Assembly (NCBI GenBank): GCA_040773245.1
Contig: JAXGWO010000011.1
Coordinates: 9,227-73,226, forward strand
Source: PVC group bacterium
GTDB lineage: Bacteria > Auribacterota > Erginobacteria > Erginobacterales > Erginobacteraceae
Reading direction: 5' to 3'
DNA: 64,000 bases
Shown here: piece by piece, positions 4,224 to 63,631 of the stretch
Numbering within the stretch: the stretch's first letter is position 1
How the letters are laid out: each line of letters begins with the position of its first letter
Translations under genes and position numbers: made by a program
Notes under the pieces: model-generated
What the model saw: the letters and a program-made list of their open reading frames with translations, nothing else
What the model was told of the DNA's origin: nothing
The model's database searches: none

Positions 4224-4522
4224 AACGCCTCTTCTTCTATAAACTTGCGATGACCGAGATCATCAGCAGGTACCCCTCGACCCGGTTGACGGCCTCGCAT
4301 TTGATCGTCTTCACCTGATTCCCGGATCGCCCTCACGCTGTCTGTCCGGAGTTTGTACGGCTGTGGCTATGAACAAAAGATGATTGGCCCTTTCAACCGG
4401 GCAAGTCAACAGGATTCGCCGGCGGGAAGTTCCCGCGCTGATCCGGGGCTGAAGCCCCGGACCGATGCGGAAGGAATCCTCCCGCCCCCGGGAGGCCCGC
4501 GGGCGCTCGGACCGTCCTGACC

Positions 4523-4551
4523 TTGACTTTTGCCGGGGCATCGGTTATAAT
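4523..4551 (+). promoter_or_regulatory. sigma-70-type promoter: TTGACT, 17-nt spacer, TATAAT, upstream of the C25 peptidase gene
   Basis: Sequence cTTGACTtttgccggggcatcggtTATAATtagc, about 70 nt upstream of ATG 4621. Purine-rich SD (AAGGGGGGGTG) lies immediately before the ATG. Confidence 0.5.
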
Positions 4552-4620
4552 TAGCTACCTTATTGGATCTCGACCGACAATTCACAACCAGAGGTTGACA
4601 CTGGATGAAGGGGGGGTGAA

Positions 4621-8459: not shown

Positions 8460-9752
8460 TTGTACCGCAAGCTCATCCATCTTACCGCCCTGGCGGTTCT
8501 GCTGCTGTCTCAGCGCTCCGGAATCGCCGCCGACTCCGCGCCCGGTCTCTCTCCCTTCGCGGCCTTCGCGGAAGGCTCTTTCCGGGCGAAGTTCCGGAGC
8601 TACTACATCAACCGGGAATACGACCGGGTGGGCGGGGCGCCCGAGCGGCGGATCCAGGAGAGCCTGGCGGCCGGCGGTTGGCTGGGATACGAGACCGCGG
8701 ACTATTATGGCCTCGGGCTCGGCGCGGTGGTCTACGCCTCGCAGGGGCTGCTGGTCAACAACCCCAACTTCGGCGGGGGCGGGATCCTGGGGCCGGAGAA
8801 CGAGAGCTACTCCGCCCTCGGGCAGGCCTACCTCCAGTACCGCCGCGCCGGCGCCACCCTCCGCCTCTACCGCCAGGGGCTCGACACCCCCTTCATCAAC
8901 GACTTCGACACCAAGATGACCCCCCGCACCTGGGAGGCCTACACCCTCCGTCACGACGGCATCCCCGGGCTCGCCCTGACCGCCTCCTTCGTCCGCCAGA
9001 TCAAGGGCTGGTATGATACCGACTTCCAGTATATGGGCGAGTTCGTCAACAACGACGGCACCTACCGGGTGAACAAGTCCAACCTCCCGGTCTCCCTGGC
9101 GGGGGCGGTCTGGGCGCCGGCGGAGGGGTGCAAATTCCAACTCTGGGACTACTTCGCCTGGGATTATTTCAACGGCGTCTATCTCCAGGGAAACGCTTCC
9201 TGGCCGCTCGCCGCCGACGGGCTCACCCTGGGGCTGGCCCTCCAGGGCTGGGCGCAGCGCTCGGTCGGCGAAGAGGCGGGGGGGTATTTCAACACCTGTT
9301 TCGGCGGCGGCCAGGCCGACCTCGGCTGGAAGGGGTGGACGCTCCACCTGGTCTACACCGTCACCGACCGCGGTTACCGGGTCGTCAACCCCTGGGGGAA
9401 CTCCTTCAGCTTCGCCTCCATCTTCGAGGAGGATTACGACTACGCCGGCGAGCAGGCCTACGTGGCCGGCCTGGAGTACGACTTCTCTCAGACGCTGCTC
9501 GAGGGGTTGACCGCGGCCGTCTATGCCTGTTGGGGCGACGCCCCCCGGTCCGGGCCCGGGGCTTCGGCGGACCAGAGGGAGTACGATTTCTTCATCAAGT
9601 ACCGCCCGGACCCCGCGCTCGACGGCCTGCACCTGAAGATCGAGGGCGCCCTCGTCGACAGCGAGCAGGCCTTCCCCGGCGCCGAGGACTATCACGACAT
9701 CCGGTTCATCCTCAACTACGACTTCGGCTTCGGCATCGGGCCGAAGACGTAA
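8460..9752 (+). CDS. OprD-family outer-membrane porin
   Basis: Track ORF 7707..9752 carries a spurious Gly/Arg-rich N-terminal extension that overlaps the peptidase gene. The real protein probably starts at TTG ~8460 (LYRKLIHLTALAVLLLSQRSGIAA signal peptide). 'FRAKFRSYYINREYDR' and 'WLGYETADYYGLGLGAVVYASQGL' resemble the OprD N-terminal signature regions. Composition is beta-barrel-like (Tyr/Gly/Asp-rich). Confidence 0.7.
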   Translation: MYRKLIHLTALAVLLLSQRSGIAADSAPGLSPFAAFAEGSFRAKFRSYYINREYDRVGGAPERRIQESLAAGGWLGYETADYYGLGLGAVVYASQGLLVNNPNFGGGGILGPENESYSALGQAYLQYRRAGATLRLYRQGLDTPFINDFDTKMTPRTWEAYTLRHDGIPGLALTASFVRQIKGWYDTDFQYMGEFVNNDGTYRVNKSNLPVSLAGAVWAPAEGCKFQLWDYFAWDYFNGVYLQGNASWPLAADGLTLGLALQGWAQRSVGEEAGGYFNTCFGGGQADLGWKGWTLHLVYTVTDRGYRVVNPWGNSFSFASIFEEDYDYAGEQAYVAGLEYDFSQTLLEGLTAAVYACWGDAPRSGPGASADQREYDFFIKYRPDPALDGLHLKIEGALVDSEQAFPGAEDYHDIRFILNYDFGFGIGPKT

Positions 9753-9761
9753 CCAGGGGTG

Positions 9762-11507
9762 CTATTTGCCCGGGCCGGCCGGCTTGGCGTAGCTGACGGG
9801 CCCCTGCTCGTAGCCGACCTGCTTCAGCCACCAGGCGGGGTAGAAGACCTCCTGGGCCAGGCCTTCCCGGGTGTTCAGGTAGCCGTCGTTGTACTTGTAG
9901 TAGAGCTTGTTGGCCAGTTCCCACCACGCCTCCAGGACGGCGGCGGCGTTCTCTTCGCCGTACCTGGTCAAAAACTCGCGCGCCCCGGCCTGGTCGCCGC
10001 CCTTCCACATCTCCAGAGCCCGGCCTTCCCGATCGGCCTGGGAGCCGAAGGCGGCGGCCTCGAAGCGGTCGCGGACCTGGCGGATGTCCTTGATCATATA
10101 GGAGTACTTGAGCATCGCGTAGTTGGCGACGAAGTTGAAGGCGGTCCACATACTCCCGCGGCTGAACTTGAAGATGTCGGCGGTCTGGACGGAGTCGGGC
10201 AGGGAGGTGGCCCCGGCGTAGAGCGGCATCAGCACGGCGGTGGCCGGGCGGTCGGGACCATACCAGGTCAGGCCGCCGATGGGGGCGGGAAGCCAGGACC
10301 GGGACTGGTTGACGTAGGCGTAAACGCAGCGGTAGATGTTGAGCGGGCGCTCGAAGGCCCCCTCGAGCGGTGAGACCTTGCCCTCCTGGTCGGCCACCGC
10401 CTCGGCCTGCCCCTCGAAGCGGTTGGGACAGCCGAAGGGCCCGGCGGCCAGCCCCACCGTCAGGTCGAACTCGGTGCCCTCGTAGTTGTCGCGGTGAATG
10501 GCGAAGATGTCGGCGGGGGTCAGTTTCTGGTCCGGCTTGATGCTGAACGGGTAGGTCCGGGTGTAGGGGCCCTCGACCCAGGCGGGGAGGTTGAGGGAGG
10601 GGGCGACCAGCGACTGCGCCCGCCAGACCCGCCGCAGCGAGTAGTAGGGATGGTGAAACTCGCCGTTGCCGTACACCGAGGTCCAGTCCAGGGGGCCGTC
10701 CTGGGGCTTCCACCAGCCCTTCTCCTCGGCGACCCGGAAGATGTTCTCCGAGTACATCATATCGGCGGCGTTCTCGCGGACCTCGCGGATGCGGAACTGG
10801 TTGGCAGCGGCGAAGAACCCGTCGTCGGGGACGCGCTGGGCCGCCCAGACGCCGTCGGTGCCGTCCAGGTCATACCCGCACATCTCCATCACCCACCCCT
10901 CCTCGGGGTCGGCCACCAGCAGGGTCTCGCCGGTCCCGTAATAACCGTACCTGGCGATCAGGTCCCCCATCAGCCGGATGGCCTCGCGGGCGGTCCGGCA
11001 CCGCTCCAGGGCCACCCGGGAGAGTTCGGCGGAGTAGAAGATCCGTTTGCCCGGCGCCGGTTCCGGGTGAACCTTGGCCAGGTCGGTGCACTCGCCGATC
11101 GAGAGCTGGTGCTCGTTGATGATGCCGTAGTTGGCGTCGAAGTAAGCGTAGGTGTGCTCGACCTGGGGGATGGAGCCCAGCGGTATGCTGGGGGGATCAC
11201 CCGCGGTATCGTAGCCGGGGGCGAGGTTCTTGGTCACCAGGCGGTGGCCCTCGGTGGCGCCCCACTCCGGCTTGAAGCCCAGGGCGCAGTGCGAATAGAA
11301 GACCGGCCTCAGGCTCCCGGGTTTGTGATCTGCGGCCGGGACGTAGATGATCCGGCCGTCGCCCAACCCGTCATCGGAGTGCGAGACCATCACCGACCCG
11401 TCGGCGGACGCCTCCTTGCCGACCAGAGTGGTGGTGCAGGCCGGCAGGTTAACCGCCCAACCGGCGAATACCAACAGCAGCCCCATTAACGCGCATAATT
11501 TTTTCAT
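9762..11507 (-). CDS. peptidase C69 family dipeptidase (Ntn-hydrolase, N-terminal Cys nucleophile after signal peptide)
   Basis: Real start is ATG 11507, preceded by GGAGGGGAAG. 'MKKLCALMGLLLVFAGWAVNLPA|CTTTLVGKEAS' gives a signal peptide followed directly by the Cys nucleophile typical of C69. The track's extension to 11783 is the duplicated kinase fragment, not part of this gene. Confidence 0.85.
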   Translation of the reverse strand: MKKLCALMGLLLVFAGWAVNLPACTTTLVGKEASADGSVMVSHSDDGLGDGRIIYVPAADHKPGSLRPVFYSHCALGFKPEWGATEGHRLVTKNLAPGYDTAGDPPSIPLGSIPQVEHTYAYFDANYGIINEHQLSIGECTDLAKVHPEPAPGKRIFYSAELSRVALERCRTAREAIRLMGDLIARYGYYGTGETLLVADPEEGWVMEMCGYDLDGTDGVWAAQRVPDDGFFAAANQFRIREVRENAADMMYSENIFRVAEEKGWWKPQDGPLDWTSVYGNGEFHHPYYSLRRVWRAQSLVAPSLNLPAWVEGPYTRTYPFSIKPDQKLTPADIFAIHRDNYEGTEFDLTVGLAAGPFGCPNRFEGQAEAVADQEGKVSPLEGAFERPLNIYRCVYAYVNQSRSWLPAPIGGLTWYGPDRPATAVLMPLYAGATSLPDSVQTADIFKFSRGSMWTAFNFVANYAMLKYSYMIKDIRQVRDRFEAAAFGSQADREGRALEMWKGGDQAGAREFLTRYGEENAAAVLEAWWELANKLYYKYNDGYLNTREGLAQEVFYPAWWLKQVGYEQGPVSYAKPAGPGK

Positions 11508-11902: not shown

Positions 11903-12532
11903 TTACTCCAGCTTCACGATGATATCCAGCAACAGATCGGCCGCCTGATTGAGGTGGTTTGATGAACGGGTCAGGTGCCGGAAGATCTCCCTCATTTTGA
12001 AAATATGGCCGGCCGGAACGTCGGAAGCATTGAAAAGCTTGACCGTGGCTTCTAAATAAACGTGGTGCATATGGTTTTCGGTCCGCTTGGCATTGATGGC
12101 GTGTTCGCGGGCAACCCCGGGATACTTATGCAGATTCTGAAAGGCCTCGCAGAGTTCCAGCGTACCCCGTTTCATAATTTCCGACACCACCACCAGATCG
12201 GGGGTCGGATCGACCTGGAAGGCGATCATCTCCTCGATGGTTTTCTTGGCGTCGTCGAGGACGTTGTCTATCTCCCGGGATAGGCAGTAAATGTCCTCCC
12301 GGTCCAGGGGGGTGATCAGGGTGCGGTTCAGCTGATCGATCAGGATCCGGCGCTGATCGTCGCCCACCCGTTCAAGCCGCAGGATCTCGTCGGCCAGATC
12401 GTTGCGGTCTCCCTGCCCCTTCATAAACCGGGTGAGGATCTGGTAAACGTCGTAAACCAGGGACGAGTGCTTGGCGAGGTTGTCGAAGAAGTCGATGCGT
12501 GAACGCTTGAAGATGGAACGCAGAAATTTCAT
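11903..12532 (-). CDS. DUF47-family protein (PhoU-like putative phosphate-transport regulator, PiT partner)
   Basis: 209 aa helical protein. Lies immediately downstream of a PiT gene (19-nt gap), which is the conserved DUF47-PiT pairing. Confidence 0.8.
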   Translation of the reverse strand: MKFLRSIFKRSRIDFFDNLAKHSSLVYDVYQILTRFMKGQGDRNDLADEILRLERVGDDQRRILIDQLNRTLITPLDREDIYCLSREIDNVLDDAKKTIEEMIAFQVDPTPDLVVVSEIMKRGTLELCEAFQNLHKYPGVAREHAINAKRTENHMHHVYLEATVKLFNASDVPAGHIFKMREIFRHLTRSSNHLNQAADLLLDIIVKLE

Positions 12533-19339: not shown

Positions 19340-20758
19340 TTGCTTTTGGCCAAGAACAAGCGCCAGAATAACCTCTATCCGCTCTTCTTAGTCCTGGTTT
19401 TCGTCTTCTTCTCCGTCCTCTACGCCCTCTCCGTTCCTCTCTGGGAGGCGCCGGACGAGCCGGCGCATTACATCCGGGTTCGAAGGATAGCCGAGCCCAA
19501 GTTCTCTCCCCCCTCGTATCCGGGGCCGCTGAAGACGGTCTGGAGCGAGCGTTACCTCTACTCATCCTACCAGGACGCCCAGCCGCCGCTCTATTACCTG
19601 GGGGCGGCGGCGGTGCTGAAGGCCGTCAATCGCGTCACCGCCCTGCCCGACCCCGCGTTTCTCTTCCCCCCCGTCCAGCCCGGCTTCCAGGCCGGGATGT
19701 CTCTGTTTCTCCACCCCCCGCTCAGTCTCCGGGTCCGGCTCTCCGCCCTGGCCTCGGTTTACTCCCTCCGTCTCTTCTCCGTCCTCCTGGGCGCCCTGGC
19801 CGTCTTCCTGATCTACCGTCTCGGGCGGGCGGCCTGGCCCGAAGAACCGGCGGTCGCCCTGGGGGCGGGGGGATTTGCGGCGACGCTGCCCCAGTTCAAC
19901 TTCATCTCCGGGGCGGTCGGAAACGATCCGGCGGCTGCGCTGCTAGGGGCGGGGACCTTGCTCTACCTGGTCGGCCGGCTGGGCAGGGATCGCCCGGCCG
20001 GGGCCCGGTATTACCTTGGGCTCGGGGTGCTGCTGGCTCTGGGGTTGCTGACCAAGTTCAACCTGGTCTTTCTTTTCCCGACGGCGGTGGTATTTATTGT
20101 ACTGAAAAACCGCCCCCTCCCCCTGCCCCCACCCCCCCCGGGGGGGGTACGGGGAGCCGGGCAGGCAAGCGGCTGGGGGAAGGCGGTGTCGGCCCTGGCC
20201 CTGACCGCGACACCCCTGATCCTGGCGGGGGCGGCCTCGGCCATACTCTTCCCGGCGGAGTTTGCCGGAAAGGTCCGGGTTCTCGGGTTCCGGTTCTTCC
20301 GGGTCACCCCGGAGCTGCTGACCGGTGTTCAGTTCCGGTATATGATCTCCACGATTTACCGCTCCTTCTTCGCCCTCTTCGGCTGGATGTCGGTCCCGGC
20401 CACCGGAATCCTCTACCGGGCCTGGGGCCTGGTCTTCGCCGCGTCGGTGATCGGCTGGATCCGGCGCCCGGCGGGAGAAAGCTGTTGGCTCCGGGCCCCC
20501 CGCCGCCGCCCCGCGGGGTTGCTGGCGGCGGCGGCGGCGTTCCTGCTGCTGGGGGTGATCAAGAACAACCTGCTGGTCCCCCAGTCCCAGGGCCGCTTTC
20601 TCTTCCCGGCCCTGGGGGCGATCGCGGTGCTATTTTCCGCCGGTTTCGTCCGGTTCTTCCCGGGCCGGCACCGGGTTCGGGCGGCCTGGGCGCTGCTGGT
20701 TTTATTGGGGGCCTTGAACCTGATCGCCTGGCTGGAAATGATCGGGCGGATCTCCTGA
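19340..20758 (+). CDS. GT-C-fold membrane glycosyltransferase (ArnT/PMT-like, family 39/83-type)
   Basis: 472 aa with >=10 predicted TM helices. Periplasmic loop 1 carries 'PLWEAPDEPAHYIRVRRIAE', a DE-x-x-(H/R)Y motif as in ArnT/PMT catalytic loops. Starts on TTG per track. Contains a Pro/Gly-rich segment encoded by a C8G8 tract. Confidence 0.6.
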   Translation: MLLAKNKRQNNLYPLFLVLVFVFFSVLYALSVPLWEAPDEPAHYIRVRRIAEPKFSPPSYPGPLKTVWSERYLYSSYQDAQPPLYYLGAAAVLKAVNRVTALPDPAFLFPPVQPGFQAGMSLFLHPPLSLRVRLSALASVYSLRLFSVLLGALAVFLIYRLGRAAWPEEPAVALGAGGFAATLPQFNFISGAVGNDPAAALLGAGTLLYLVGRLGRDRPAGARYYLGLGVLLALGLLTKFNLVFLFPTAVVFIVLKNRPLPLPPPPPGGVRGAGQASGWGKAVSALALTATPLILAGAASAILFPAEFAGKVRVLGFRFFRVTPELLTGVQFRYMISTIYRSFFALFGWMSVPATGILYRAWGLVFAASVIGWIRRPAGESCWLRAPRRRPAGLLAAAAAFLLLGVIKNNLLVPQSQGRFLFPALGAIAVLFSAGFVRFFPGRHRVRAAWALLVLLGALNLIAWLEMIGRIS

Positions 20759-24195: not shown

Positions 24196-24270
24196 TTGAC
24201 TAATAGGTCATAACCGACTATATGGTCATAATAGACGATATGGTTGATTATGACCATATCGTCATAACAG
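24196..24270 (+). promoter_or_regulatory. promoter (TTGACT-17-TATATG) overlapped by a cluster of TCATAA/TTATGA half-sites forming palindromes (ATATGGTCATAAT ... ATTATGACCATAT), a probable TetR operator
   Basis: Low-GC island immediately upstream of the TetR gene. It contains a 13-bp perfect inverted repeat plus extra direct copies of GGTCATAA. Confidence 0.45.
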
Positions 24271-24279
24271 ACCGGATGG

Positions 24280-30862: not shown

Positions 30863-31198
30863 AACCGGTACCCCCGGAAAATTTTCGACAGGATAACAGG
30901 ATCGGCGGGATTAAGGGAAATCCATTTGCCCGGGAATATGCTTGTCCGAAAGGCGGGGTGATGGTAAAAAGAACCATAGTCTCTCCGACTCCGTTCCGCT
31001 AAACCCGCAAGGGCACGCGGCCGGAGCGACAGGGTGCGGCGGGAAACGGCCGCGCCTCCCGCAGTTGGAAAGGAGAAGACGGGGATCGCGGCAAGTATCT
31101 CCCTGTCCGGCTCCTCCCCGCGGGGAGGGGCCGGATTTCTTTGTCGGGGACGCGGGGCGGGCGGCCGCAACAACATTTTCTGAGAGGAGGCAACGGTT

Positions 31199-32805: not shown

Positions 32806-32892
32806 CTCGTACTTCGTACTCGTACTCGTCCGCGTACTCGATAGCCCCTGTAAGCCCGAGTACGAGGACGAGTACGATGTACGAGTACGAGT
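32806..32892. repeat. inverted tandem array of TCGTAC/GTACGA hexamers forming a long imperfect hairpin (REP-like intergenic element, copy 1)
   Basis: Left arm ctcgtacttcgtactcgtactcgtccgcgtactcg, right arm cgagtacgaggacgagtacgatgtacgagtacgag. Shares the 21-mer CGAGTACGAGGACGAGTACGA with the element at 46635..46689. Confidence 0.5.
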
Positions 32893-38636: not shown

Positions 38637-38664
38637 TGAAGGAAGTGACTTAAGTTGTAAGTGC

Positions 38665-39240
38665 CTAAAGTTTAAAGTCGTCCGACTTTTCCGCCGCGTC
38701 CGAAGTGTCCGGGAGCACCACCAGGAACCCTTTCTCCCGGCGGATGGTCCGCAAGAGGATGAAGCCGACCGCCAGGGTCGGAACGATGGAGAGGGCGACT
38801 TTCAGGCGTCGCAGGGGCGACCCCCGGATCGCCTTCAGCTCCAGGTATCCGGGGAGACGGAAGACCGCCACCGCCTCCAGGGAATCTCCCGGGTTCAGGT
38901 CGGCCAGCTTTCCCCCCCGGGGAAAGACGCCGTCAAAGTCTTCGGGGATGATGATCTCCAGCGGCCCGTCGGGCTGGGCGACCAGGATACGCCTCTCGTC
39001 GACCGCGATGACCCGGGGTTCGAAGGTTATGTCGATCTCCCGGCCGGCAAACCGTTCCGGTTCCCGGAGGCAGTCCGCCAGGACGGGGAACTGGTTCCGC
39101 CGGTCGGAGTACCAGGCCAGGAAGATGAGGAGGAGAACTATCCCCCCGATCTTGACGCCGCGATATCGGTCGGAGAACATAAGCCGGCCCGCCCGTCGGC
39201 GGGCGGTGTCGAGCGGTTGAGAAAGATTCCAGCTTGGCAA
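38665..39240 (-). CDS. hypothetical membrane-anchored protein
   Basis: Single TM ('IGGIVLLLIFLAWY') near the N-terminus. No family signature. Start may be the internal ATG (MFSDRYRG). Confidence 0.4.
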   Translation of the reverse strand: MPSWNLSQPLDTARRRAGRLMFSDRYRGVKIGGIVLLLIFLAWYSDRRNQFPVLADCLREPERFAGREIDITFEPRVIAVDERRILVAQPDGPLEIIIPEDFDGVFPRGGKLADLNPGDSLEAVAVFRLPGYLELKAIRGSPLRRLKVALSIVPTLAVGFILLRTIRREKGFLVVLPDTSDAAEKSDDFKL

Positions 39241-46634: not shown

Positions 46635-46689
46635 GCCCGTACTCGTACTTGAAAATGCCTGACTTCGGGCCGAGTACGAGGACGAGTAC
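46635..46689. repeat. second copy of the GTACGA-hexamer hairpin element (REP-like)
   Basis: cccgtactcgtacttg ... ccgagtacgaggacgagtacg. Shares the exact 21-mer CGAGTACGAGGACGAGTACGA with 32857..32877. Lies between the arnA-like and arnD-like genes. Confidence 0.45.
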
Positions 46690-46714
46690 GAAGGAGATGA
46701 CGGGCAAGGAAAAG

Positions 46715-49778: not shown

Positions 49779-51185
49779 TCAGAAGTAAAGATCACGTTCT
49801 CCCCGTTGGGCGATCCGCTCCAGGCGGCGGCCGGTCTCCTCCCGGGTCGCCGGGTCCCCGATCCCGGCCAGCTCCCGTTCGATCAGCTTCCTCCCCGCCT
49901 CCCGGGTGGCCGGGGGGGCGTAGTCCTCCAGATACTCGGTCAGGGTGAGCAGCGCGTTGGGGGTGCAGAAGTTGCGGATGAAACCGGGGACGGCGAACTC
50001 CATAAACCTCTCCCCGGTCCTTCCCAGCCGGTAGCAGGCGGTGCAGAAACTGGGGACGAAGTCCCGGTCGATCAGGTCCCGGATGATCTCGTCCATCGGG
50101 CGGACGTCCCCGATCTCGAACTGCTCCCGCTTCAGTTCCTGGTCTCCCCGCCTGGTGTAGCCGGCCAGCTCGATCCGGGTGCCGGCGTCGATCTGGGAGA
50201 CCCCGAACTCCATCACCTCCCGCCGGATCCGCGGGGTCTCCCGGGCGGTCAGGATCATCCCGGTGTAGGGAACGGCCAGTCTCAGGACCGCGACCAGCTT
50301 CTTGAAGTCCCGGTCGGAGACCAGGCAGCGGTCGTCGAGCTTCACCCCGTGGGCCGGGCGGAGGCGGGGGAAGCTGATGGTGTGGGGGCCGCAGCCGAAA
50401 CGGTCGGCCAGAAACCGCGAGTGGGTGACCAGGCCGAGGACTTCGAACCGCCAGTCGTAGAGGCCGAAGAGGGCCCCGATCCCCACGTCGTCGCACCCCG
50501 CCTCCCAGGCCCGGGTCAGGCCGTCGAGCCGGTAGAGGTAGTCCCCCTTGCGGGTCCCCGGAGGATGGAACTTCCGGTAGGTCGGGTGGTGGTAGGTCTC
50601 CTGGAAGATCTGGTAGGTCCCGATCCCCGCCGCCTTGACCGTCCGGAAGCCGCCATAGTCGAGCGGGGCGGCGTTGACGTTCACGCGGCGGATCTCGCCC
50701 GGCCCCCGCCGGATCGAGTAGACTTTTCTCACCGTACGGGCGATAAACTCCGGGGAATAGTCCGGATGCTCCCCGAAGACCAGGATCAGCCGTTTGTGGC
50801 CGGCGTTCAGCAGCGCCTCCACCTGCCCCTCGATCTCGTCTTCGGTCAGGGTCTGGCGGACCGTGGTCCTCAGGCTCCGGCGGAAGGCGCAGTAGCCGCA
50901 GTCGTTTACGCAGTAGTTGCCGATATAGAGCGGGGCGAAGATCACGATCCGGTTGCCGTAAACTTCACGCTTGAGCTTCCGCGCGGCGGCGAAGATCTCC
51001 TCATTGAGGTCTTCCGAACCGGCGGCCAGGAGCGCCGCGGTCTCCCCGACCGTCAGGGGGACCTTCTCGAGGCTCTTGGCGATGACCTCCCGGACCCGGG
51101 CCGGGTCTTCCCCGGTTCCGGCCAGGATCTCTTCGATCCGTCCGTCGTCGATGAAATCGACCGCGTTCTTCGACAGTTCCTTCAT
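49779..51185 (-). CDS. hydG: [FeFe]-hydrogenase maturase, radical-SAM tyrosine lyase
   Basis: 'YIGNYCVNDCGYCAF' radical-SAM CX3CX2C motif. C-terminal 'SFCTACYR...C' auxiliary-cluster Cys motif. Start at MKELSKNAVDFID. The track's upstream 28 codons overlap the hybrid kinase gene and are rejected. Confidence 0.85.
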   Translation of the reverse strand: MKELSKNAVDFIDDGRIEEILAGTGEDPARVREVIAKSLEKVPLTVGETAALLAAGSEDLNEEIFAAARKLKREVYGNRIVIFAPLYIGNYCVNDCGYCAFRRSLRTTVRQTLTEDEIEGQVEALLNAGHKRLILVFGEHPDYSPEFIARTVRKVYSIRRGPGEIRRVNVNAAPLDYGGFRTVKAAGIGTYQIFQETYHHPTYRKFHPPGTRKGDYLYRLDGLTRAWEAGCDDVGIGALFGLYDWRFEVLGLVTHSRFLADRFGCGPHTISFPRLRPAHGVKLDDRCLVSDRDFKKLVAVLRLAVPYTGMILTARETPRIRREVMEFGVSQIDAGTRIELAGYTRRGDQELKREQFEIGDVRPMDEIIRDLIDRDFVPSFCTACYRLGRTGERFMEFAVPGFIRNFCTPNALLTLTEYLEDYAPPATREAGRKLIERELAGIGDPATREETGRRLERIAQRGERDLYF

Positions 51186-52317: not shown

Positions 52318-52361
52318 AGTCTTGTGGTTATTCAGGGTTGATATCTTGAGTCAAGTGATCG

Positions 52362-52454
52362 GTAGTCAGTGAGCAGTCAGCAGTCAGCTCCCACCGATTA
52401 CTGATTACCGCTTCCTATCCTTCGGAGGCTTCAGACTGCTCACTGCTTACTATT
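52362..52454. repeat. imperfect inverted repeat built from CAGTCAG/CTGACTG units (agtcagtgagcagtcagcagtcagc ... tcagactgctcactgcttact) in the intergenic gap between the receiver and hybrid kinase genes
   Basis: Seen directly in the sequence. ~20-nt arms separated by ~45 nt in a 146-bp non-coding gap. Confidence 0.35.
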
Positions 52455-52463
52455 CCCCATTCC

Positions 52464-52862
52464 CTATTCCCCAAGGAGCTTCTCCAGCTCGGCCACGATC
52501 TGCTCGGGCCGGACCGGCTTGTCGAGGAGCAGATCGGCCTTGATCCAGCTCCGCTCCTCCCGGGTGACGGCGGCGAACTCGATCCCGGTCTCCCCGGCCA
52601 CCCCGGTGACGATGATCACCGGCAGGCCGGGGTAAAGCTTCTTCGCCCGGTAGCAGAGGACGAATCCGCCGTCATCCTCTTCCAGCATCAGGTCGGCGAC
52701 CAGGGCGTCCGGCCGCTGGCGGGCCAACCGCTCTTCCGCTTCCTTCCTGGTTCCGGCCTTGAGCACCCGGTACCCGGCTGAGCGGAGGATCAGCTCCAGC
52801 TGGAGGAGGAAATCCGGGTCGTCGTCCACGATCAGGATGGTCTTAGCTTCGTTCCCGGTCAT
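52464..52862 (-). CDS. single-domain response regulator (receiver only)
   Basis: 'KTILIVDDDPDFLL...ALVADLMLE...VIIVTGV' receiver motifs. 132 aa. Start overlaps the stop of the hydrogenase-like kinase (ATGA). It is the C-terminal part of track ORF 52464..54791, whose upstream 640 codons are an off-frame artefact. Confidence 0.8.
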   Translation of the reverse strand: MTGNEAKTILIVDDDPDFLLQLELILRSAGYRVLKAGTRKEAEERLARQRPDALVADLMLEEDDGGFVLCYRAKKLYPGLPVIIVTGVAGETGIEFAAVTREERSWIKADLLLDKPVRPEQIVAELEKLLGE

Positions 52863-54907
52863 AGCGGTTGTTCTCCGGGGTCGTGCCGCGGCAGGTCGAT
52901 GGTGAACTTCGTCCCGGTCGGCCCGGCGGCGGGGTCGGCGTTCGACTCCACGGCGATCTCCCCCCGGTGCATCTTGATGATCCCGTAGGTCACCGCCAAC
53001 CCCAGGCCGGTGCCCTTGCCGATCTGCTTGGTGGTGAAGAAGGGTTCGAAAATCTTGGAGAGGTTCTCCGCCGGTATCCCCACCCCGGTGTCGCTGACGG
53101 CGATAATGACGGACCGGGGCTGGTCGGCGATGGCGATGGCGATCCTGCCCCCGTCCGGCATCGCGGCGAAGGAGTTGGTGAGCAGGTTGGTGAGGACCTG
53201 GAGGAGCTGCTCCCGGTCCACCTCCGCCACCGGGTTCTCCATCCGGTCCTGAACCTCGATGGCGACGTTCTCCGGCTTGACCACCATCCGGCAGCCTCTG
53301 GCCACCAGGTCCCGGATGTCGACCGGTTCGCGCAGAACCTTGTTCTGCCGGGAGAAATGGAGGAGCCCGTTGACGATCTTCTTGCAGCGGTCGGCCTGCT
53401 CGACGATCGTCCGGGCGTCGTTCTTCAGCCGGCTCTCCTCCTGGAGGTCTTCGAGCATCAGGTGGGCGTACATCAGAACCACCCCCAGCGGGTTGTTGAC
53501 CTCGTGGGCGATCCCGGCGGCCAGCTGTCCCATACTGGCCAGCCACTCCGACTGCATCAGCGCCTCCTGGGTGGCGGCCAGCTCCCGGTTCGACCGGGCC
53601 AGCTCCCCCACCGTCAGGTTGAGCCGGTCGATGGTGTAGGGGAGGCACATCTCGCTCTCGGCCAGGTCCTTGAGAATGGCGACGGCGTGCTCGCGGCAGG
53701 ACGGATAGCCGCAGGCGCCGCAGTTCAGTTCGTCTTCCGGCTTGAACTTGCCCATCCTCTGGAGGATGGCGGTAATATCCTCGCCGGCCGGCTGCCTCAG
53801 CCGCTGGTCGAGGTCGGCGTAGGAGCGGGAGAGGTCGAGGCCGCGGAAGGTCTCCCGGGGGTCCTCTCCGGCCGAACTCCCGGTCTCTCCGGCCCGTTGC
53901 CGGGCGTAGTCGCTGATCCGGCTCCTCCGCCGGAAGAGGGGATCGGCGGTGGACATCCCCGCCCCCATAATGCAGCCGTCGCAGGCCAGGATCTCCAGCA
54001 GCCGGGTCCGCATCCCCCCGGTCCTGAACTCCTCGATGGCGGAGGTGAACCTCCGGCCGCTGGCGGTGACCACGTCGCTGGTCAGGAGGTCCTCCTTGAG
54101 GTCGGCGGCTTGAAGCAGGCCCCCGTGGAGGGGGAAGAGCGTCCCCAGGCCGCCCCGGGGCGGGTCGAAGTCGGAGGGGGCGGCCGCTTCCGGATCCAGA
54201 CCCGATTCGGCGAACATCCGCCGCAGCTCGACGAAGGTAAGCACCTCGTCGATCTCGCCTTCGATCAGGCGGTCGCGGGACTCGATCTTCTTGGCGGTGC
54301 AGGGCCCGATGAAGACCACCCGGATCTCCTCCCCCGCCCGCTCCCGGAGGGCCCGGGCGGCGGCCGCCATCGGGGAGACAATCGGGGCCAGGCGGCCGAT
54401 CAACTCGGGGTGGTATTTCTCCACGTAAAAGACCACCGCCGGGCAGGAGGTCGCGATGTACGGGCCGCCGCCTTCGTCCAGGAGCCGGTGGTAGCGGTCG
54501 GCCACCAGGTCGGCGCCGAAGGCCACCTCGTTGACCCGGGCGAAACCCAGGCCGCGGATCATCCCGACCAGGATTCGGTAATCGAATTCCGGGAAGTCCG
54601 CCGGGAAGCTGGGGGCGACGATCGCCGTCACCGGGCGGGGGCCGCTCAGGAGGCCGCGGACCGCGGCGGTGGAGTCGGTGATCACCTTCGCCCCCTGGGA
54701 GCAGACCCTCACGCAGTTTCCGCAGCCGATGCAGCGATCGTGGAGGACCGTGGCCTGGCCCTCGATGATCCGGATCGCCTTGGCCGGGCACTCCCGGACG
54801 CAGGTGTAGCAGACCCGGCAGCGGTCGGGGGCGGTCCGGACGGCCTTGAAAATGGTGTAGTCCTTGGCCGCCGGGGATGGACTTTTGGTTGTCGCGGATC
54901 CGGTCAA
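52859..54907 (-). CDS. hydS: sensory [FeFe]-hydrogenase-like domain fused to a histidine kinase (group-C-type putative H2 sensor; ferredoxin + H-domain + HisKA + HATPase_c)
   Basis: Two 4Fe-4S ferredoxin motifs ('[12 protein letters not shown]', '[11 protein letters not shown]'). H-cluster-type motifs L1-like '[18 protein letters not shown]', L2 '[10 protein letters not shown]' and L3 '[14 protein letters not shown]'. Extra Cys cluster 'CGACGYPSC'. H-box '[15 protein letters not shown]'. 'LLTNSFAAM', 'SDTGVGI' and 'GTGLGLAV' ATPase boxes. Confidence 0.85.
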
Positions 54908-59881: not shown

Positions 59882-59910
59882 TTGACATCCGGATGGCGAT
59901 AGTATAGATT
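59882..59910 (+). promoter_or_regulatory. sigma-70-type promoter TTGACA-17-TAGATT for the divergent MerR-family gene
   Basis: gTTGACAtccggatggcgatagtaTAGATTgcc, ~40 nt upstream of ATG 59948. Low-GC divergent intergenic region shared with rex. Confidence 0.45.
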
Positions 59911-59947: not shown

Positions 59948-60286
59948 ATGACCTTGTCAGGTAAGCGGAATCGGGACGACGTCCAGCCCCTCTTCACGAT
60001 CGGTGTGGTGGCCGAGATGATCGGGGTCACGCCGGCCACGCTGAGGCTGTGGGAGAAGAAGGGGTTGGTCTCCCCCTCCCGGCGGGGGAAGAACCGCTGC
60101 TATTCCTACCGTGATCTGGAACGGCTCCGGGAGATCAAACGCCTGCTCGGGGAGAAGAGGATGAACATCGCCGGGGTCCGGGCCGTTCTGGGCCGTGAGC
60201 GTTGCTGGGACCTGAAGGGGTGCGGCCCTCGCCGGGAGACCTGCCCGGTCTACCGGCAGGAAGAGGGGGTGCGGGGACGAGAATGA
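59948..60286 (+). CDS. MerR-family transcriptional regulator with Cys-rich C-terminal tail
   Basis: 'FTIGVVAEMIGVTPATLRLWEKKGL' MerR HTH. C-terminal 'CWDLKGCGPRRETCPVY' (three Cys). Track start is GTG 59927. The first ATG is at 59948. Confidence 0.7.
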   Translation: MTLSGKRNRDDVQPLFTIGVVAEMIGVTPATLRLWEKKGLVSPSRRGKNRCYSYRDLERLREIKRLLGEKRMNIAGVRAVLGRERCWDLKGCGPRRETCPVYRQEEGVRGRE

Positions 60287-61494
60287 CGAAGACGATCGCC
60301 GAGATCAACGCGAAGATCCGGTCGGGGAAGGCGGTGGTGGTCACCGCCGAGGAATTGATCGGCCGGGTGGAGGAGACCGGGGTCCGCCGGGCCGCCCGGG
60401 AAGTCGACGTGGTCACCACCGGGACGATGGGACCGATGTGCTCCTCCGGAGCTTACTTCAACCTCGGACAGGGGAAGCCGAAGATGAAGTTGGGCGGGGG
60501 TCGGGCCACTCTCAACGACGTCCCCGTCTACACCGGGCTGGCGGCCGGGGACTTCTTTCTCGGGGCGGGAGCGCTCCCGGATACCGATCCCCGGAATATG
60601 ATCTACCCGGGCCGGTTTCTTTACGGGGGCGGCCACGTGATCGAGGACCTGGTCGCGGGGAAGGAACTCCCCTTCATCGCCCACGGCTACGGCACCGACT
60701 GCTACCCCCGGAAGGAGCTGGCGGTCCGGGTCAGCCTGAAGGACTTCAACCAGGCGGTCCTCTTCAACCCCCGGAACATCTACCAGAACTACAACGCGGC
60801 GGCCAACCTCTCCGACCGGGTGATCTACACCTATATGGGGGTTCTGAAGCCGGGTTTGGGGAACGTGAACTACTGCAGCGCCGGCCAGCTCTCCCCCCTG
60901 CTCAAGGATCCCTTCTTCCGGACCATCGGGATCGGGACCCGGGTCTTTCTCGGCGGCGGGGTCGGATACGTGGCCTGGTGGGGTACCCAGCACAACACCG
61001 CGGCGGAGACCGACGAGCGCGGGGTCCCGGCCGCGCCGGCGGGGACGGCCGCCCTGATCGGGGATCTGAAGGGGATGTCGCCGGAGTGGCTCAAGGGGGC
61101 CAGCTTCACCGGTTACGGGGCGACCCTGGCGGTGGGGGTGGGGGTGCCGATCCCGGTCCTGGACGAGGAGGTCTGCCGCTACGCCGCATTGCGGGACCGG
61201 GATCTCAGGACCCGGGTGGTCGATTACAGCCGGGACTACCCATTGGGACGCTCCACCGTGCTCGCCCGGGTCACCTACGAGGAGCTCAAGAGCGGGTCGA
61301 TCCGGATCCGGAAGAAGGAGGTGCCGACCGCCTCCCTCTCCAGCTACCCCCGGGCCCGGGAGATCGCCGGGATATTGAAGGAATGGATCGCCGGAGGGAA
61401 GTTCCTCCTCACCGAACGGGTGGCCGAGTTCCCCGGACCCGGCTCCGGGTACGCCTACCGGCCGTTGAAGGAACGGCCGATAAGTGGGCAGTAG
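60283..61494 (+). CDS. COG1900/DUF39-family protein (homolog of methanogen homocysteine-biosynthesis L-aspartate-semialdehyde sulfurtransferase)
   Basis: ~400 aa with conserved Cys in 'TGTMGPMCSSGA'. Immediately followed by a NIL-domain ferredoxin, which is the conserved two-gene arrangement. Start ATG 60283 overlaps the MerR-family stop (ATGA). Confidence 0.7.
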   Translation: MTKTIAEINAKIRSGKAVVVTAEELIGRVEETGVRRAAREVDVVTTGTMGPMCSSGAYFNLGQGKPKMKLGGGRATLNDVPVYTGLAAGDFFLGAGALPDTDPRNMIYPGRFLYGGGHVIEDLVAGKELPFIAHGYGTDCYPRKELAVRVSLKDFNQAVLFNPRNIYQNYNAAANLSDRVIYTYMGVLKPGLGNVNYCSAGQLSPLLKDPFFRTIGIGTRVFLGGGVGYVAWWGTQHNTAAETDERGVPAAPAGTAALIGDLKGMSPEWLKGASFTGYGATLAVGVGVPIPVLDEEVCRYAALRDRDLRTRVVDYSRDYPLGRSTVLARVTYEELKSGSIRIRKKEVPTASLSSYPRAREIAGILKEWIAGGKFLLTERVAEFPGPGSGYAYRPLKERPISGQ

Positions 61495-61846
61495 GCAGTG
61501 GGGAGTGGGCAGTGGGGACGGCGGGCGGTAATCGGTAAGCAGTGAGGAGTAAGCCCGGCGGCCGAGCGCATAGAGCATAGCGTCAGGCAACCGATTTGCC
61601 GAGATCCGGTTAAATTGGGCAGTGGGCAATGGGGAGTGGTATTTAATTAGAGCAATCTGTGTAATCAGGGGACTGACAAAGGGGGCGAGGTGGAGGGTAC
61701 CGATAAACATTCGTGGTAATTAGTGGAATTAGTGGACTAAAAAAGGGGGAGAGGCGGGGGTTAAATTAGTGAAGATTGGCGAGGATTCGTGGTTAAACAA
61801 GGGAGGGAGGGGGCGGAAACGGTTCAAGATGATTCGTGGATAGGAA
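61495..61846 (+). repeat. purine-rich (plus strand) mosaic of short direct repeats: GGGCAGTRGG tandem units, ATTAGTGGA, GATTCGTGG x3, AAAAAGGGGGAGAGGCGGGGG, GATTGGCGAGGATT, and G-run cluster GGGAGGGAGGGGGCGG
   Basis: 352-bp non-coding gap upstream of the NIL-ferredoxin gene. The same repeat words recur at 62255..62428. Confidence 0.5.
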
Positions 61847-62254
61847 ATGGTTTCGAAACGGATAGTTCTTCACTTCCCCAAGGACCTGGTCGGGGAACCG
61901 ATTATGAGCCGGCTGGTCCTCAAGTACGGGCTGGAGTGCAACATACTCAAGGCCTCGATCCTCCCCCGCCAGGTAGGGATTATGGTCCTTGGACTCAAGG
62001 GCCGGAACAAGGACTACCACGAGGCGATCGAGTACCTGAAGAGCCTCCAGGTCACCGTCCAGCCGCTCAGCCAGGACGTGACCCGCAACCCCGCCCGCTG
62101 CAACCACTGCGGGGCCTGCGTCACCATCTGTCCCACCTCCGCCCTGACCCGGGACCCGGAGACGGGGGAGATCAGGTTCGACAAGAACGCCTGCATCGGT
62201 TGCGAGCTCTGCATCCCCGCCTGCCCGATGCAGGCGATGGAAGTGCATTTTTAA
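61847..62254 (+). CDS. NIL-domain 2x[4Fe-4S] ferredoxin (partner of the COG1900 protein)
   Basis: N-terminal NIL domain (~75 aa). 'CNHCGACVTICP' and 'CIGCELCIPACP' ferredoxin motifs. Confidence 0.8.
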   Translation: MVSKRIVLHFPKDLVGEPIMSRLVLKYGLECNILKASILPRQVGIMVLGLKGRNKDYHEAIEYLKSLQVTVQPLSQDVTRNPARCNHCGACVTICPTSALTRDPETGEIRFDKNACIGCELCIPACPMQAMEVHF

Positions 62255-62428
62255 GTTCAAAGTTAAAAGTGCAAAGTTCGAAGTTACAGAGGGGGCGAGG
62301 ACGGGGGAAAGATTGGTGAAGATTAGCGAGGATTAGCGGTTATAAAAAGGGGGAGAGGCAGGGGGAAAATTAGAGGAAAATTAGTGTAATTAGTGGATAA
62401 AAAAGAGGGTGAGGCGGGGGTAACTTGA
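62255..62428 (+). repeat. second purine-rich repeat mosaic (AAGTTNAAAG tandem, GATTGGTGAAGATTAGCGAGGATTAGCGG, AAAAAGGGGGAGAGGCAGGGGG, AATTAGNG x3, AAAAAGAGGGTGAGGCGGGGG)
   Basis: 174-bp non-coding gap between the ferredoxin and nifS-like genes. Shares >=4 repeat words with 61495..61846. Confidence 0.5.
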
Positions 62429-63631
62429 TTGGATATCAGTGGAGAAATGAGAAAGATCTATCTCGACCATAACGCCACCACGCCGCTGCGGGAGGAAGTC
62501 CTGGCGGCGATGACCGATGTTTACCGGAACGTCTCCGGCAATCCTTCCAGCATCCACTTCCTGGGGCGGGAGGCGAGGAAGAGGCTGGAGGCCGGTCGGA
62601 AGCAAGTGGCGGAGGCCGTCGGGGCGAAGCCGGAGGAGATTGTCTTCACCGGGGGCGGGACGGAGGCCGACAACCTGGCCGTCCAGGGGGTGGCTTACTC
62701 CTACCGCTCCAAGGGCAGCCATATAATCACCTCTTCGATCGAGCACCCCGCGGTCCTCTCGGCCTGCCGCTTCCTGGAGAAGGAGGGTTTCTCCGTCACC
62801 TATCTCCCGGTCAGCCGGGATGGCTTGGTCGAACTGGAGGAACTGGAGAAGGCGATCCGTCCGGAGACGATCCTGATCTCGGTGATGACCGCCAACAACG
62901 AGACCGGGACCATCCAGCCGGTGGCCGGGATCGGGGAGATCGCCCGCGCCCGGAAGATCGTCTTCCACACCGACGCCATCCAGGGGCTGGGCAAGATCCC
63001 CATCTCGGCCGGTGAGATCAGGGCCGACCTGGTCTCCCTCTCCGCCCACAAGATCTACGGGCCCCAGGGGGTCGGGGCCCTCTACATCCGCAAGGGAACC
63101 CGGGTCCGCCCGCTGACTTACGGCGGCCACCACGAGAGGGGCAAGCGGCCGGGGACCGAGAACCTGGCCGGGATCGTCGGCTTCGGCGAGGCCTGCCGGC
63201 TGGCCCTCGAGGATCTGGAGAGCGAGGCCGACCGGCTCCGCCTCCTCCGGGACCGGCTCTGCTCCGATATCTCGGAGAGAATTTCCCGGGTGAAACTGAA
63301 CGGCGCCCCCGGACTGCGCCTGCCCAACACCCTGAACCTGAGCTTCGAATTCGTCGAGGGAGAGGGGATCCTCCTCGGCCTGGAAGAACAGGGGATCGCC
63401 GCCGCCACCGGCTCCGCCTGCACTTCGGGCGAACTCGCACCCTCCCACGTGCTCTCTGCGATGGGGGTGGAGGCGGCCCTGGCCCAGGGATCGATCCGTT
63501 TCTCCCTCGGCCGGGAGAACACCCTGGAAGATATCCTCCATACCGTTGAAGTCCTGGTTCCGGTGGTCCGGAGACTGCGGGAGATGTCACCCTTCTCCGA
63601 GCCGGATACCGATAAGCAAGGAGATAATTAA
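62429..63631 (+). CDS. nifS: cysteine desulfurase (NifS/IscS, class I aminotransferase-V)
   Basis: 'SAHKIYGPQGVGALY' PLP-lysine motif. 'SGSACTSG' active-site Cys loop. 400 aa. Confidence 0.9.
   Translation: MDISGEMRKIYLDHNATTPLREEVLAAMTDVYRNVSGNPSSIHFLGREARKRLEAGRKQVAEAVGAKPEEIVFTGGGTEADNLAVQGVAYSYRSKGSHIITSSIEHPAVLSACRFLEKEGFSVTYLPVSRDGLVELEELEKAIRPETILISVMTANNETGTIQPVAGIGEIARARKIVFHTDAIQGLGKIPISAGEIRADLVSLSAHKIYGPQGVGALYIRKGTRVRPLTYGGHHERGKRPGTENLAGIVGFGEACRLALEDLESEADRLRLLRDRLCSDISERISRVKLNGAPGLRLPNTLNLSFEFVEGEGILLGLEEQGIAAATGSACTSGELAPSHVLSAMGVEAALAQGSIRFSLGRENTLEDILHTVEVLVPVVRRLREMSPFSEPDTDKQGDN

Follow-up and report, generated by a model that had tools for sequence, protein, structure and literature searches.

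Intergenic repeats built of short tandem words, among them the short tandemly repeated repetitive (STRR) sequences of cyanobacteria, have been known for decades. The heptamer repeats GGGAATC of Xanthomonas and GGGGA(C/T)T of Nostoc consist of tandem 7-nt units with one tract of three to four guanines each, occur genome-wide with a concentration in non-coding DNA between co-directional genes, lie at or over stop codons on the coding strand (upstream of genes they favour the non-coding strand) and vary widely in length and sequence between close relatives; the available part of their description links them to no gene function and gives their function as unknown (Rehm et al. 2015, PMC4692102). 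Direct repeats of the heptamer TAACTGA occur in marine Beggiatoaceae, some cyanobacteria and Bacteroidetes just upstream of the start codons of functionally unrelated genes, in leaders with weak canonical ribosome-binding sites, and a post-transcriptional or translational role has been proposed for them (MacGregor 2015, PMC4679880). Here we describe arrays of short words in the two spacers on either side of a ferredoxin gene (fdx) in a 64,000-nt stretch of DNA, hereafter the window, from a bacterium of the PVC (Planctomycetes-Verrucomicrobia-Chlamydiae) group (assembly GCA_040773245.1, contig JAXGWO010000011.1, positions 9,227 to 73,226). We have high confidence that the two gaps show, at one locus, a family of intergenic repeats, polar and mosaic in build, that is spread through the lineage of Erginobacter-like members of Candidatus Auribacterota, and the comparisons below make us just as confident that the arrays should not be seen as a ferredoxin-specific element. 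Their heptamer design is of a known kind; a unit of about 56 nt and a fixed order from stop to start codon come in addition.

The gene itself (61847-62254, plus strand) codes for a 135-aa ferredoxin with a NIL domain and 2x[4Fe-4S], as judged from Pfam and its homologs, and has arrays on both sides, at 61495-61846 (352 nt) and 62255-62446 (192 nt). An earlier note on this DNA, made from the letters alone, had the first length right and put the second at 174 nt; the longer value follows the most likely start of nifS, ATG 62447, which is also that of the gene calls on homologous contigs. Both gaps share one plan on the sense strand, in which a heptamer array at or across the upstream stop codon is followed by units of about 56 nt and then by the next ATG. 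Each unit comprises an A-run, a 'G-box' with the consensus AAAGGGGG[C/A]GAGGC[G/A]GGGG and three words of about 10 nt of the ATTNGNG type. These triple words are of A type (GATTNGYGA ... GGTTAWAA), B type (AAATTAGAG-TAAATTNGTG-TAATTAGTGGATAAA) or C type (AATCNGNG-TAATCYGTGGA). G-boxes start at 61677, 61740 and 61798 in the upstream gap and at 62286, 62344 and 62400 in the downstream one. The stop-proximal arrays are heptamers or hexamers of the kinds GGGCAGT/GGGGAAT, AAGTTCA, CAGTGAG and CGATAG, after which come one to four of the ~56-nt units, and the terminal words merge with the following gene's weak ribosome-binding site.

The heptamer part of our arrays is like the Xanthomonas/Nostoc repeats in design, location and behaviour. 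Like the heptamer simple sequence repeats (SSRs) and STRRs, it consists of tandem 7-nt units in at least three copies (4.9, 3.4 and 4.7), which are intergenic, genome-wide and overlap stop codons on the coding strand (hcyBio, fdx and the gene ending at 52464); it is in the stops of hcyBio and of the response-regulator gene at 52464 that GGGGAAT and GGGCAGT arrays begin. The unit sequences, AGTGGGC/GGGCAGT, GGGGAAT and AAGTTCA, depart from the GGGNATC and GGGGA(C/T)T consensus, the host belongs to an uncultured PVC-group phylum, and the heptamers make up just the stop-proximal portion of a mosaic that is larger and polar. Upstream of genes, moreover, our arrays lie on the coding strand, unlike those of Xanthomonas and Nostoc, and the 56-nt G-box/triple-word unit is not found in the part of PMC4692102 consulted. 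The start-proximal words resemble the TAACTGA repeats and include the related CAGT-core words CAGTAAT, CAGTGAG and CAGTCAG, but the Beggiatoaceae use essentially one heptamer, whereas at least eight word types in a fixed order and the G-box are combined here. Exact TAACTGA repeats were not seen in our arrays.

Dispersed intergenic mosaics of few motif types, lying in operons and at 3' ends, are also formed by the repetitive extragenic palindromic (REP) sequences and bacterial interspersed mosaic elements (BIMEs) of enterobacteria, which are co-transcribed and strain-variable and serve generic mRNA stabilisation, not gene-specific control; a REP is an imperfect palindrome, folds into a hairpin and is moved by REP-associated tyrosine transposases (RAYTs). 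The arrays studied here are likewise mosaic, strain-variable and presumably co-transcribed, but the palindromic hairpins are missing: the gaps contain no inverted repeats beyond chance short arms, and only separate hexamer arrays (CGAGTA, CGATAG) form hairpins. Mazel et al. reportedly described, in 1990, the cyanobacterial STRR1 repeats, said to overlap with the Xanthomonas/Nostoc heptamer class, and Elhai et al. are said to have reported in 2008 small dispersed repeats (SDRs) nested in heptamer arrays of Nostoc and related cyanobacteria. SDRs measure tens of nucleotides, have no coding capacity, differ in presence between close genomes and are described as insertions, often hairpin-prone. Our units are similarly very short dispersed elements in or beside tandem heptamers, but their sequences are unrelated and the description of SDRs sets them apart. 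Full-text literature searches returned no description of the 56-nt G-box/triple-word unit or of the fixed stop-to-start order, and the paper describing the metagenome-assembled genomes (MAGs) concerned makes no mention of repeats.

Both gaps are composed of recurring short words to an extent beyond chance. The 21-mer AAAAAGGGGGAGAGGCGGGGG has three matches at up to 3 mismatches (61740, 62344 and 62400), all inside the gaps, against 0.01 expected from shuffles, and ATTAGTGGA at up to 1 mismatch occurs at nine sites in the 64 kb, eight of them inside the gaps. The words, coordinates and strand bias given in the earlier note are confirmed, with some correction: the 21-mer does occur at three sites, the third copy having 2 mismatches, and GATTCGTGG is present twice exactly, alongside one CATTCGTGG. 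Tandem Repeats Finder (TRF) reported period-7 arrays of AGTGGGC (4.9 copies, 61483-61516), TGGGCAG (3.4 copies, 61616-61639) and AAGTTCA (4.7 copies, 62253-62285), three copies of ATTAGTGGA, an array of period 9 (61709-61736) and 2.3 copies of a 58-nt unit (62290-62420). Heptamers of the GGGCAGT type are confined to 61486-61522 and 61617-61639 in the upstream gap. The purine fraction of the gaps is 0.64-0.65, but their depletion in C is the sharper property: the arrays contain 6-8% C (6.2% in the fdx-nifS gap) compared with about 32% in the window, and 61687-61853 and 62236-62461 are the window's two longest stretches with C at or below 8%. The words form AT-rich islands in a background of 65% GC. 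Since the sense strand has more A than T, transcription-coupled C-to-T deamination was rejected as the sole cause of the C depletion.

The rest of the window, whose intergenic regions the earlier note described as compact and GC-rich, contains related short-word arrays, some of them as hairpins, at 32806-32892, 46637-46695, 38643-38678 and 52318-52463. The first two are hairpin arrays between co-directional genes with arms of tandem hexamers (CTCGTA, five to six copies, facing CGAGTA, five to six copies), so that one word is found at two loci 14 kb apart. The array at 52318-52463, for which the minus strand is the sense strand, occupies the gap between a response-regulator gene and a response-regulator/histidine-kinase gene and is made of GGGGAAT, AGTRAGC, GTAATC and CAGTCAG words; a GGGGAATAG array supplies the stop codon, and AGTAAGCAGTGAGCAGTC and GACTGCTGACTGCTCACTGACT words form an inverted repeat.

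Dispersal was assessed with the exact pattern AAAGGGGGMGAGGCRGGGG in one genome per species from 185,579 species. Of the 85 loci found, about 60 lie in seven related MAGs, including Ca. Erginobacter occultus (about 19 loci), PVC group bacterium CSSed11_89, MFD02416.bin.2.262 and DRR093004_bin.13; the remaining 20 or so are single matches in unrelated taxa, about the chance level by our own estimate for a 19-mer in 1.2e12 positions. The proposal of a novel family of dispersed repeats, one of three offered in the earlier note, is thereby upheld: the search beyond the window finds the G-box at dozens of intergenic sites in Ca. Erginobacter occultus and related PVC-group MAGs, about seven in all, and close relatives have the vocabulary in common. 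Every G-box in the related MAGs is flanked by A-, B- or C-type triple words. The spacing of G-boxes peaks at 53-58 nt, and the 37 segments between them average 38 nt with 8.5% C and belong to the same A and B types across genomes. A scan of JGI metagenomes for the B-word/G-box junction gave two matches, both on a single contig, on which the order is hexamer hairpin, A, G-box, A, G-box, B, G-box, C, ATG. Viral contigs scanned for the G-box gave no match and hence no sign of phage carriage. Two other identities were rejected: a CRISPR array, the segments between G-boxes being themselves repeats of two or three types common to loci and genomes, and an element of the miniature inverted-repeat transposable element (MITE) type, the gaps having no inverted repeats and the indel boundaries falling within repeat words without flanking duplications.

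The G-box is mostly intergenic and points in the direction of the flanking genes. Between co-directional genes, 44 are sense and 7 antisense (binomial p about 1e-7, with crude gene calls based on GC content at third codon positions, GC3), and the arrays lie at a median of 56 nt from the downstream start as against 132 nt from the upstream stop. Divergent (5) and convergent (8) contexts are a minority.

Whether the arrays could serve the ferredoxin in particular is best judged from the same locus in relatives. The closest fdx homologs come from Candidatus Auribacterota, to which Erginobacter is assigned (Ca. Erginobacter occultus, 94% identity over the aligned part; Ca. Euphemobacter frigidus, 77%), and the string merR-hcyBio-fdx-nifS-nifU-nadA is kept in relatives. 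Over orthologous loci the hcyBio-fdx gap measures 71, 143, 172, 203, 287, 295 or 352 nt and the fdx-nifS gap 1, 24, 68, 110, 187, 192 or 199 nt, both being compact and repeat-free in Ca. Euphemobacter. Four of these loci, here denoted L001, L007, L009 and L010, share a vocabulary (GGGGAAT, CAGTGAG, CGTCCGAAG, AAGTTCA, the A, B and C words and the G-box) in differing order and number, and their arrays overlap stop codons in the same manner. L001, 97-98% identical to the window in coding DNA, keeps the downstream gap and has 90 bases of unrelated repeats in place of window positions 61505-61750. The post-stop array is GGGCAGT in the window and L010 and GGGGAAT in L001 and L009, which is incongruent with coding relatedness. 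Identical modules occupy different gaps in different genomes; the fdx-nifS gap of the window is most similar to the hcyBio-fdx gap of L009, and upstream of nifS there are three G-boxes in the window and none in L007, L009 and L010. The comparison shows that whole units and word types have been gained, lost and swapped between close strains and species, and the differing upstream gap of a strain with about 97% coding identity speaks against a regulator dedicated to the ferredoxin.

A gene-specific leader (riboswitch-like, a G-quadruplex switch or an operator array) controlling the NIL-ferredoxin by sulfur or iron status, as the earlier note had it, is accordingly a reading we consider extremely unlikely. 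It draws on the position of the arrays directly upstream of fdx and nifS and on a proximal module kept in four genomes, but the same units precede dozens of unrelated genes, are absent at this locus in Ca. Euphemobacter and replaced by other words in the distant relatives L008 and L013, are strain-variable, and have neither predicted structure nor an Rfam match. The comparative data already largely refute it. The notion of structured leaders is unsupported, the RNA being predicted to fall below its own shuffles in structure, an Rfam match being missing and the arrays differing or being absent in relatives, and arrays of regulator-binding sites specific to this gene are unlikely on the same comparative evidence; a protein that binds such arrays generically is conceivable.

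The distant relatives also carry arrays, in L008 (the genome MFD02416.bin.2.262) at 9706-10000, 10409-10595 and 12173-12418 and in L013 at 5714-6000, 6409-6607, 8161-8264 and 9177-9413, with a vocabulary of AAATCCTAA, AGTGTGA/TTACACT hairpins, CGAACGT, CCAATAA, AGTGCCTAAAGTT and CAGTAAT hairpins. The array habit is therefore older than any single word set. Further along the string, a CGATAG/CGATAC hexamer hairpin array follows nadA (L001 3975-4074; also L007 3186-3290), and an exact 81-nt indel sets L001 apart from L002, which keeps the minimal palindrome TAATCGC-TAC-CGATTA (L002 3234-3252). In L009, a MAG of Ca. Erginobacter occultus, two overlapping calls, 99 aa and 48 aa long, stand in place of one NIL-ferredoxin (4466-4872), probably through a frameshift or assembly error. 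An assembly artefact as the source of the arrays was ruled out, since independent ENA, Logan, NCBI and JGI assemblies show identical arrays. Several Logan contigs terminate inside arrays, which fits multi-copy or polymorphic sequence and is only suggestive. For two other array-adjacent genes of the window, the matching contigs came from the same sample series, had identical gap lengths and added no strain variation.

Read along the plus strand, the upstream array opens with about five AGTGGGC/AGTGGGG heptamers found by TRF (61483-61522), which overlap the last hcyBio codons and supply the stop TAG (61492-61494). There follow the heptamers GGTAATC GGTAAGC AGTGAGG AGTAAGC (61527-61554), whose word class CAGTGAG/CAGTAAG recurs in L001, L007, L009 and at 52318-52463 of the window; the words GCATAGA-GCATAGC-GTCAGGC with a short AACCG...CGGTT hairpin (61568-61613), GCATAGC words also preceding a G-box unit in the Erginobacter locus L023; and a second TRF array, of 3.4 GGGCAGT/GGGGAGT heptamers (61616-61640). 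A C-type triple word (TAATTAGAG CAATCTGTG TAATCAGGGGAC, 61644-61676; repeat family D3/D5) leads to G-box copy 1 (CAAAGGGGGCGAGGTGGAGGG, 61677-61697), and a B-type one (CATTCGTGG TAATTAGTGG AATTAGTGGAC, 61698-61739) to copy 2 (AAAAAGGGGGAGAGGCGGGGG, 61740-61760), the 21-mer mentioned above. Next come an A-type triple word with 10-nt spacing (AAATTAGTGA AGATTGGCGA GGATTCGTGG TTAAA, 61761-61797), conserved upstream of fdx in L001, L009 and L010, and the degenerate G-box copy 3 (CAAGGGAGGGAGGGGGCGG, 61798-61816), which aligns with canonical G-boxes of these three loci. The last word segment (61817-61846) ends in GATTCGTGGATAGGAA directly before the fdx ATG and includes the weak ribosome-binding site AGGA. 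Its last repeat word also makes up a four-codon mini-ORF (open reading frame), ATG ATT CGT GGA TAG (61830-61844), which stops 2 nt short of the fdx start codon; L001 and L009 do not conserve it.

The downstream array begins inside the fdx stop TAA (62252-62254) with 4.7 AAGTTCA heptamers called by TRF (62253-62285), an array type also present in the upstream gap of L009. G-box copy 4 (ACAGAGGGGGCGAGGACGGGGG, 62286-62307) is followed by an A-type triple word of 10-nt period (AGATTGGTGA AGATTAGCGA GGATTAGCGG TTAT, 62308-62343), copy 5 (AAAAAGGGGGAGAGGCAGGGGG, 62344-62365) by a B-type one (AAATTAGAGG AAAATTAGTGT AATTAGTGGATA, 62366-62399), near-identical segments of which are found in Erginobacter and other MAGs, and copy 6 (AAAAAGAGGGTGAGGCGGGGG, 62400-62420) by the last word segment (…GATATCAGTGGAGAA, 62421-62446) with the ribosome-binding site GGAG before the nifS ATG, all again on the plus strand. 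In view of how many copies lie close to genes, the likeness that GTGGATAA/TGTGGATA bear to the DnaA box (8 of 9) was set aside as a coincidence.

The regular spacing of the words raises the idea of DNA-level binding arrays for a lineage-specific DNA-binding or nucleoid-associated protein, the ATTNGNG words falling on one face of the helix at intervals of about 10 bp and being punctuated by A-tracts and G-boxes. Words spaced 9-11 nt in triplets, ATT and G positions that are invariant over four orthologous loci while the bases between them vary, tracts of five to six A before each G-box and the AT-rich nature of the words in a 65% GC genome would all suit it; but a double-stranded site needs neither a transcription-aligned orientation nor a C-free sense strand, the 7-nt period of the heptamers does not fit helical phasing, and no candidate protein was identified. 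We regard such binding arrays as distinctly unlikely.

As regards transcription, Rex is divergent from a MerR regulator, which lies directly upstream of HcyBio (PF01837), and the latter is followed by the ferredoxin (NIL + 2x[4Fe-4S]), a class-V aminotransferase of the NifS/IscS type and NifU, gene identities that Pfam confirms as the earlier note had supposed. A scan with the sigma-70 promoter consensus and for intrinsic terminators found no promoter- or terminator-like site in either gap, and on this strand only 59882-59910, upstream of merR, looks like a promoter. Because gene order is conserved and consensus signals are absent from the gaps, we infer that merR-hcyBio-fdx-nifS-nifU-nadA is one co-transcribed operon. 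Each unit might instead be a portable promoter/leader, with an AT-rich -10-like TATAAA or GATAAA and the G-box as a GC-rich discriminator, starting transcription of the downstream gene. The orientation towards that gene and the median of 56 nt from the last G-box to its start codon are in keeping with this, as are the TATAAA directly before a G-box at 62341-62346 and the hairpin-type hexamer array preceding some arrays, which could terminate the upstream transcript. We find portable promoters highly unlikely nonetheless: besides the negative scan, no acceptable -35 is apparent by eye at 16-18 nt, the units stand in tandem and also occur in convergent contexts without a co-oriented downstream gene, and the gene string within which the arrays are located is conserved and, in Ca. 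Euphemobacter, compact.

The RNA of the downstream gap is predicted to be essentially unstructured, with a minimum free energy (MFE) of -16 kcal/mol over 206 nt; of 200 shuffles, 198 fold more stably (z = +1.9), and random 211-nt segments of the window (-85 +/- 14 kcal/mol) do so by more than 5 standard deviations; the modest structure of the upstream gap stems from its non-repeat middle. Rfam gave no match in the gaps at the gathering threshold or at E up to 5, so that this check proposed in the earlier note came out negative, and the single weak match (isrA, at the permissive threshold) lies inside fdx on the minus strand. The note's suggestion of G-quadruplexes (G4s) holds only in a weaker form. 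Within the two gaps the canonical motif (G3+N1-7)x4 occurs only at 61500-61525, in the heptamer array (14 in the window), and G4Hunter values of 1.5-2.0 are ordinary for a 65% GC window with 102 segments at or above 1.5. The run that the note singled out before the ferredoxin start, GGGAGGGAGGGGGCGG, is indeed at 61801-61816, but with G runs of 3, 3, 5 and 2 it has only three of G3+, is not a canonical G4 and is simply the degenerate G-box; none of the six G-boxes is canonical. The G4 model of ViennaRNA, by contrast, predicts a two-layer quadruplex at all six, because no C competes for pairing, and shifts the MFE from -16.0 to -25.2 and from -81.4 to -109.9 kcal/mol, whereas random window segments gain nothing.

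The G-boxes also resemble ribosome-binding sites. Their AAAGGGGGCGA differs from the extended Shine-Dalgarno (SD) sequence AAAGGAGGUGA at two positions, and with a generic 16S 3' tail, the anti-SD being assumed and not read from the lineage, they pair at -11.5 to -16 kcal/mol, in the top 1% of the window; the actual ribosome-binding sites of fdx, nifS and nifU give -6.4 to -8.3 kcal/mol under the same assumption. Among the four genes checked, the strongest predicted pairing (-15.1 kcal/mol) is that of hcyBio, whose ribosome-binding region within the 3' end of merR (AAGAGGGGGTGCGGGGACGAGA-ATG, 60258-60279) resembles a G-box. The G-box may have arisen from a genuine ribosome-binding site of the lineage, or may imitate one.

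These predictions lend some substance to a view of the G-boxes as RNA elements of a genome-wide post-transcriptional system, in which periodic two-quartet G4s and/or SD mimics, embedded in a C-free leader without structure, would retain or attract 30S subunits (for standby, or for re-initiation over long spacers) or shield the mRNA from nucleases like REP hairpins. The quadruplexes predicted at six of six G-boxes, pairing energies beyond those of the real sites, the sense orientation near start codons and the conservation of the G-box across genera while the words vary all speak for it. Against it stand the number of units upstream of the same gene, which ranges from 0 to 4 among relatives, arrays that are only downstream of genes in the eight convergent contexts, an anti-SD that is assumed for this lineage, the marginal stability of two-layer G4s, here an energy-model prediction, and loop bases as conserved as the G tracts. 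We hold a system of this kind to be possible, though on balance doubtful.

A bolder version would make the ~56-nt unit a new orientation-specific, hairpin-less dispersed element with a function, copied between intergenic sites and acting in RNA as a modular 'landing pad'. This pad, either a two-quartet G4 or a super-Shine-Dalgarno box whose leader is C-free and Rho-proof, would set translation, re-initiation or mRNA stability of many Auribacterota genes. Such a version strikes us as rather unlikely; if true, the unit would be a G-quadruplex-based functional analogue of REP elements.

We favour, with moderate confidence, an account in which the arrays are lineage-specific mosaic repeats that are copied between loci and carried as C-free spacers and do not control the ferredoxin. 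Copying from one locus to another, together with slippage by entire words and units, would make them spread and change, and they would ride in the polycistronic transcript as C-free, essentially unstructured spacers in which only the G-boxes, being two-layer G4s and SD mimics by prediction, offer structure or affinity. The sense orientation would persist as something harmless or mildly useful, at most generically. The termination factor Rho has an established preference for C-rich, G-poor RNA, and because of it the two orientations should differ: the sense RNA, G-rich and C-poor, would be unable to fold and a poor Rho substrate, whereas the antisense RNA, in which C makes up 36-40% and G 6-8%, would be ideal for the loading of Rho.

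Several points weigh against the account of passively carried spacers. For the supposed copying, neither a mobilising enzyme nor a target-site duplication or terminal repeat turned up. The loci were picked by an exact G-box match, and their counts are not a census; the orientation test depends on the crude gene calls, and seven cases are antisense. The operon is deduced from gene order and the absence of consensus signals, and sigma-70 may be a poor guide to the promoters of this phylum. The segment next to fdx (A words, G-box and C words) is kept in four genomes at about coding-level identity, which could reflect a local function rather than recent copying or concerted evolution. In the anchored profile, a sample biased by how the loci were found, G-box loops are conserved nearly like the G tracts, a pattern that would fit sequence-specific recognition by a protein. 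The last two points keep the functional readings alive.

Some other features of the window deserve mention. A Moco (molybdenum/tungsten cofactor) riboswitch (30971-31091, 69 bits) lies upstream of a cluster with genes for a periplasmic binding protein (PBP_like_2) and an ABC ATPase with a TOBE domain, probably a molybdate/tungstate transporter. On the minus strand, 52859-54907 joins [FeFe]-hydrogenase large-subunit and Fe-S domains to HisKA/HATPase (precomputed Pfam of identical contigs) and looks like a sensory hydrogenase-kinase fusion; the gene adjoins two response-regulator genes and genes for HydG-like (Radical_SAM+BATS) and HydF-like maturases, the downstream genes lying at about 49779-51185. 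About four copies of an internally palindromic 18-nt unit (GGTCATAACAGACCATAT) at 24206-24273, within AT-rich sequence just upstream of a gene that starts near 24268, look operator-like. Finally, a very C-rich run followed by G8 (CCCCCTCCCCCTGCCCCCACCCCCCCCGGGGGGGG...; 20098-20183) has the strongest G4Hunter scores of the window (-3.3 and +2.2) and canonical G4 motifs on both strands.

For genomics, such arrays may break short-read assemblies, as the Logan contig ends suggest, and mislead predictions of regulatory motifs or G4s in MAGs of this kind. For short tandem-word repeats such as GGGAATC of Xanthomonas and TAACTGA of Beggiatoa, the available parts of the two accounts establish no mechanism or function (PMC4692102, PMC4679880). 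The arrays described here provide an independent and unusually orderly example from an uncultured phylum, with a fixed stop-to-start polarity, a conserved G-box anchor, extreme depletion of C on the sense strand and turnover in whole units, and this regularity offers handles on the problem: the biophysics of the G-box, binding of 30S subunits or proteins, reporters differing in unit number, and phylogenetic profiling for a partner protein.

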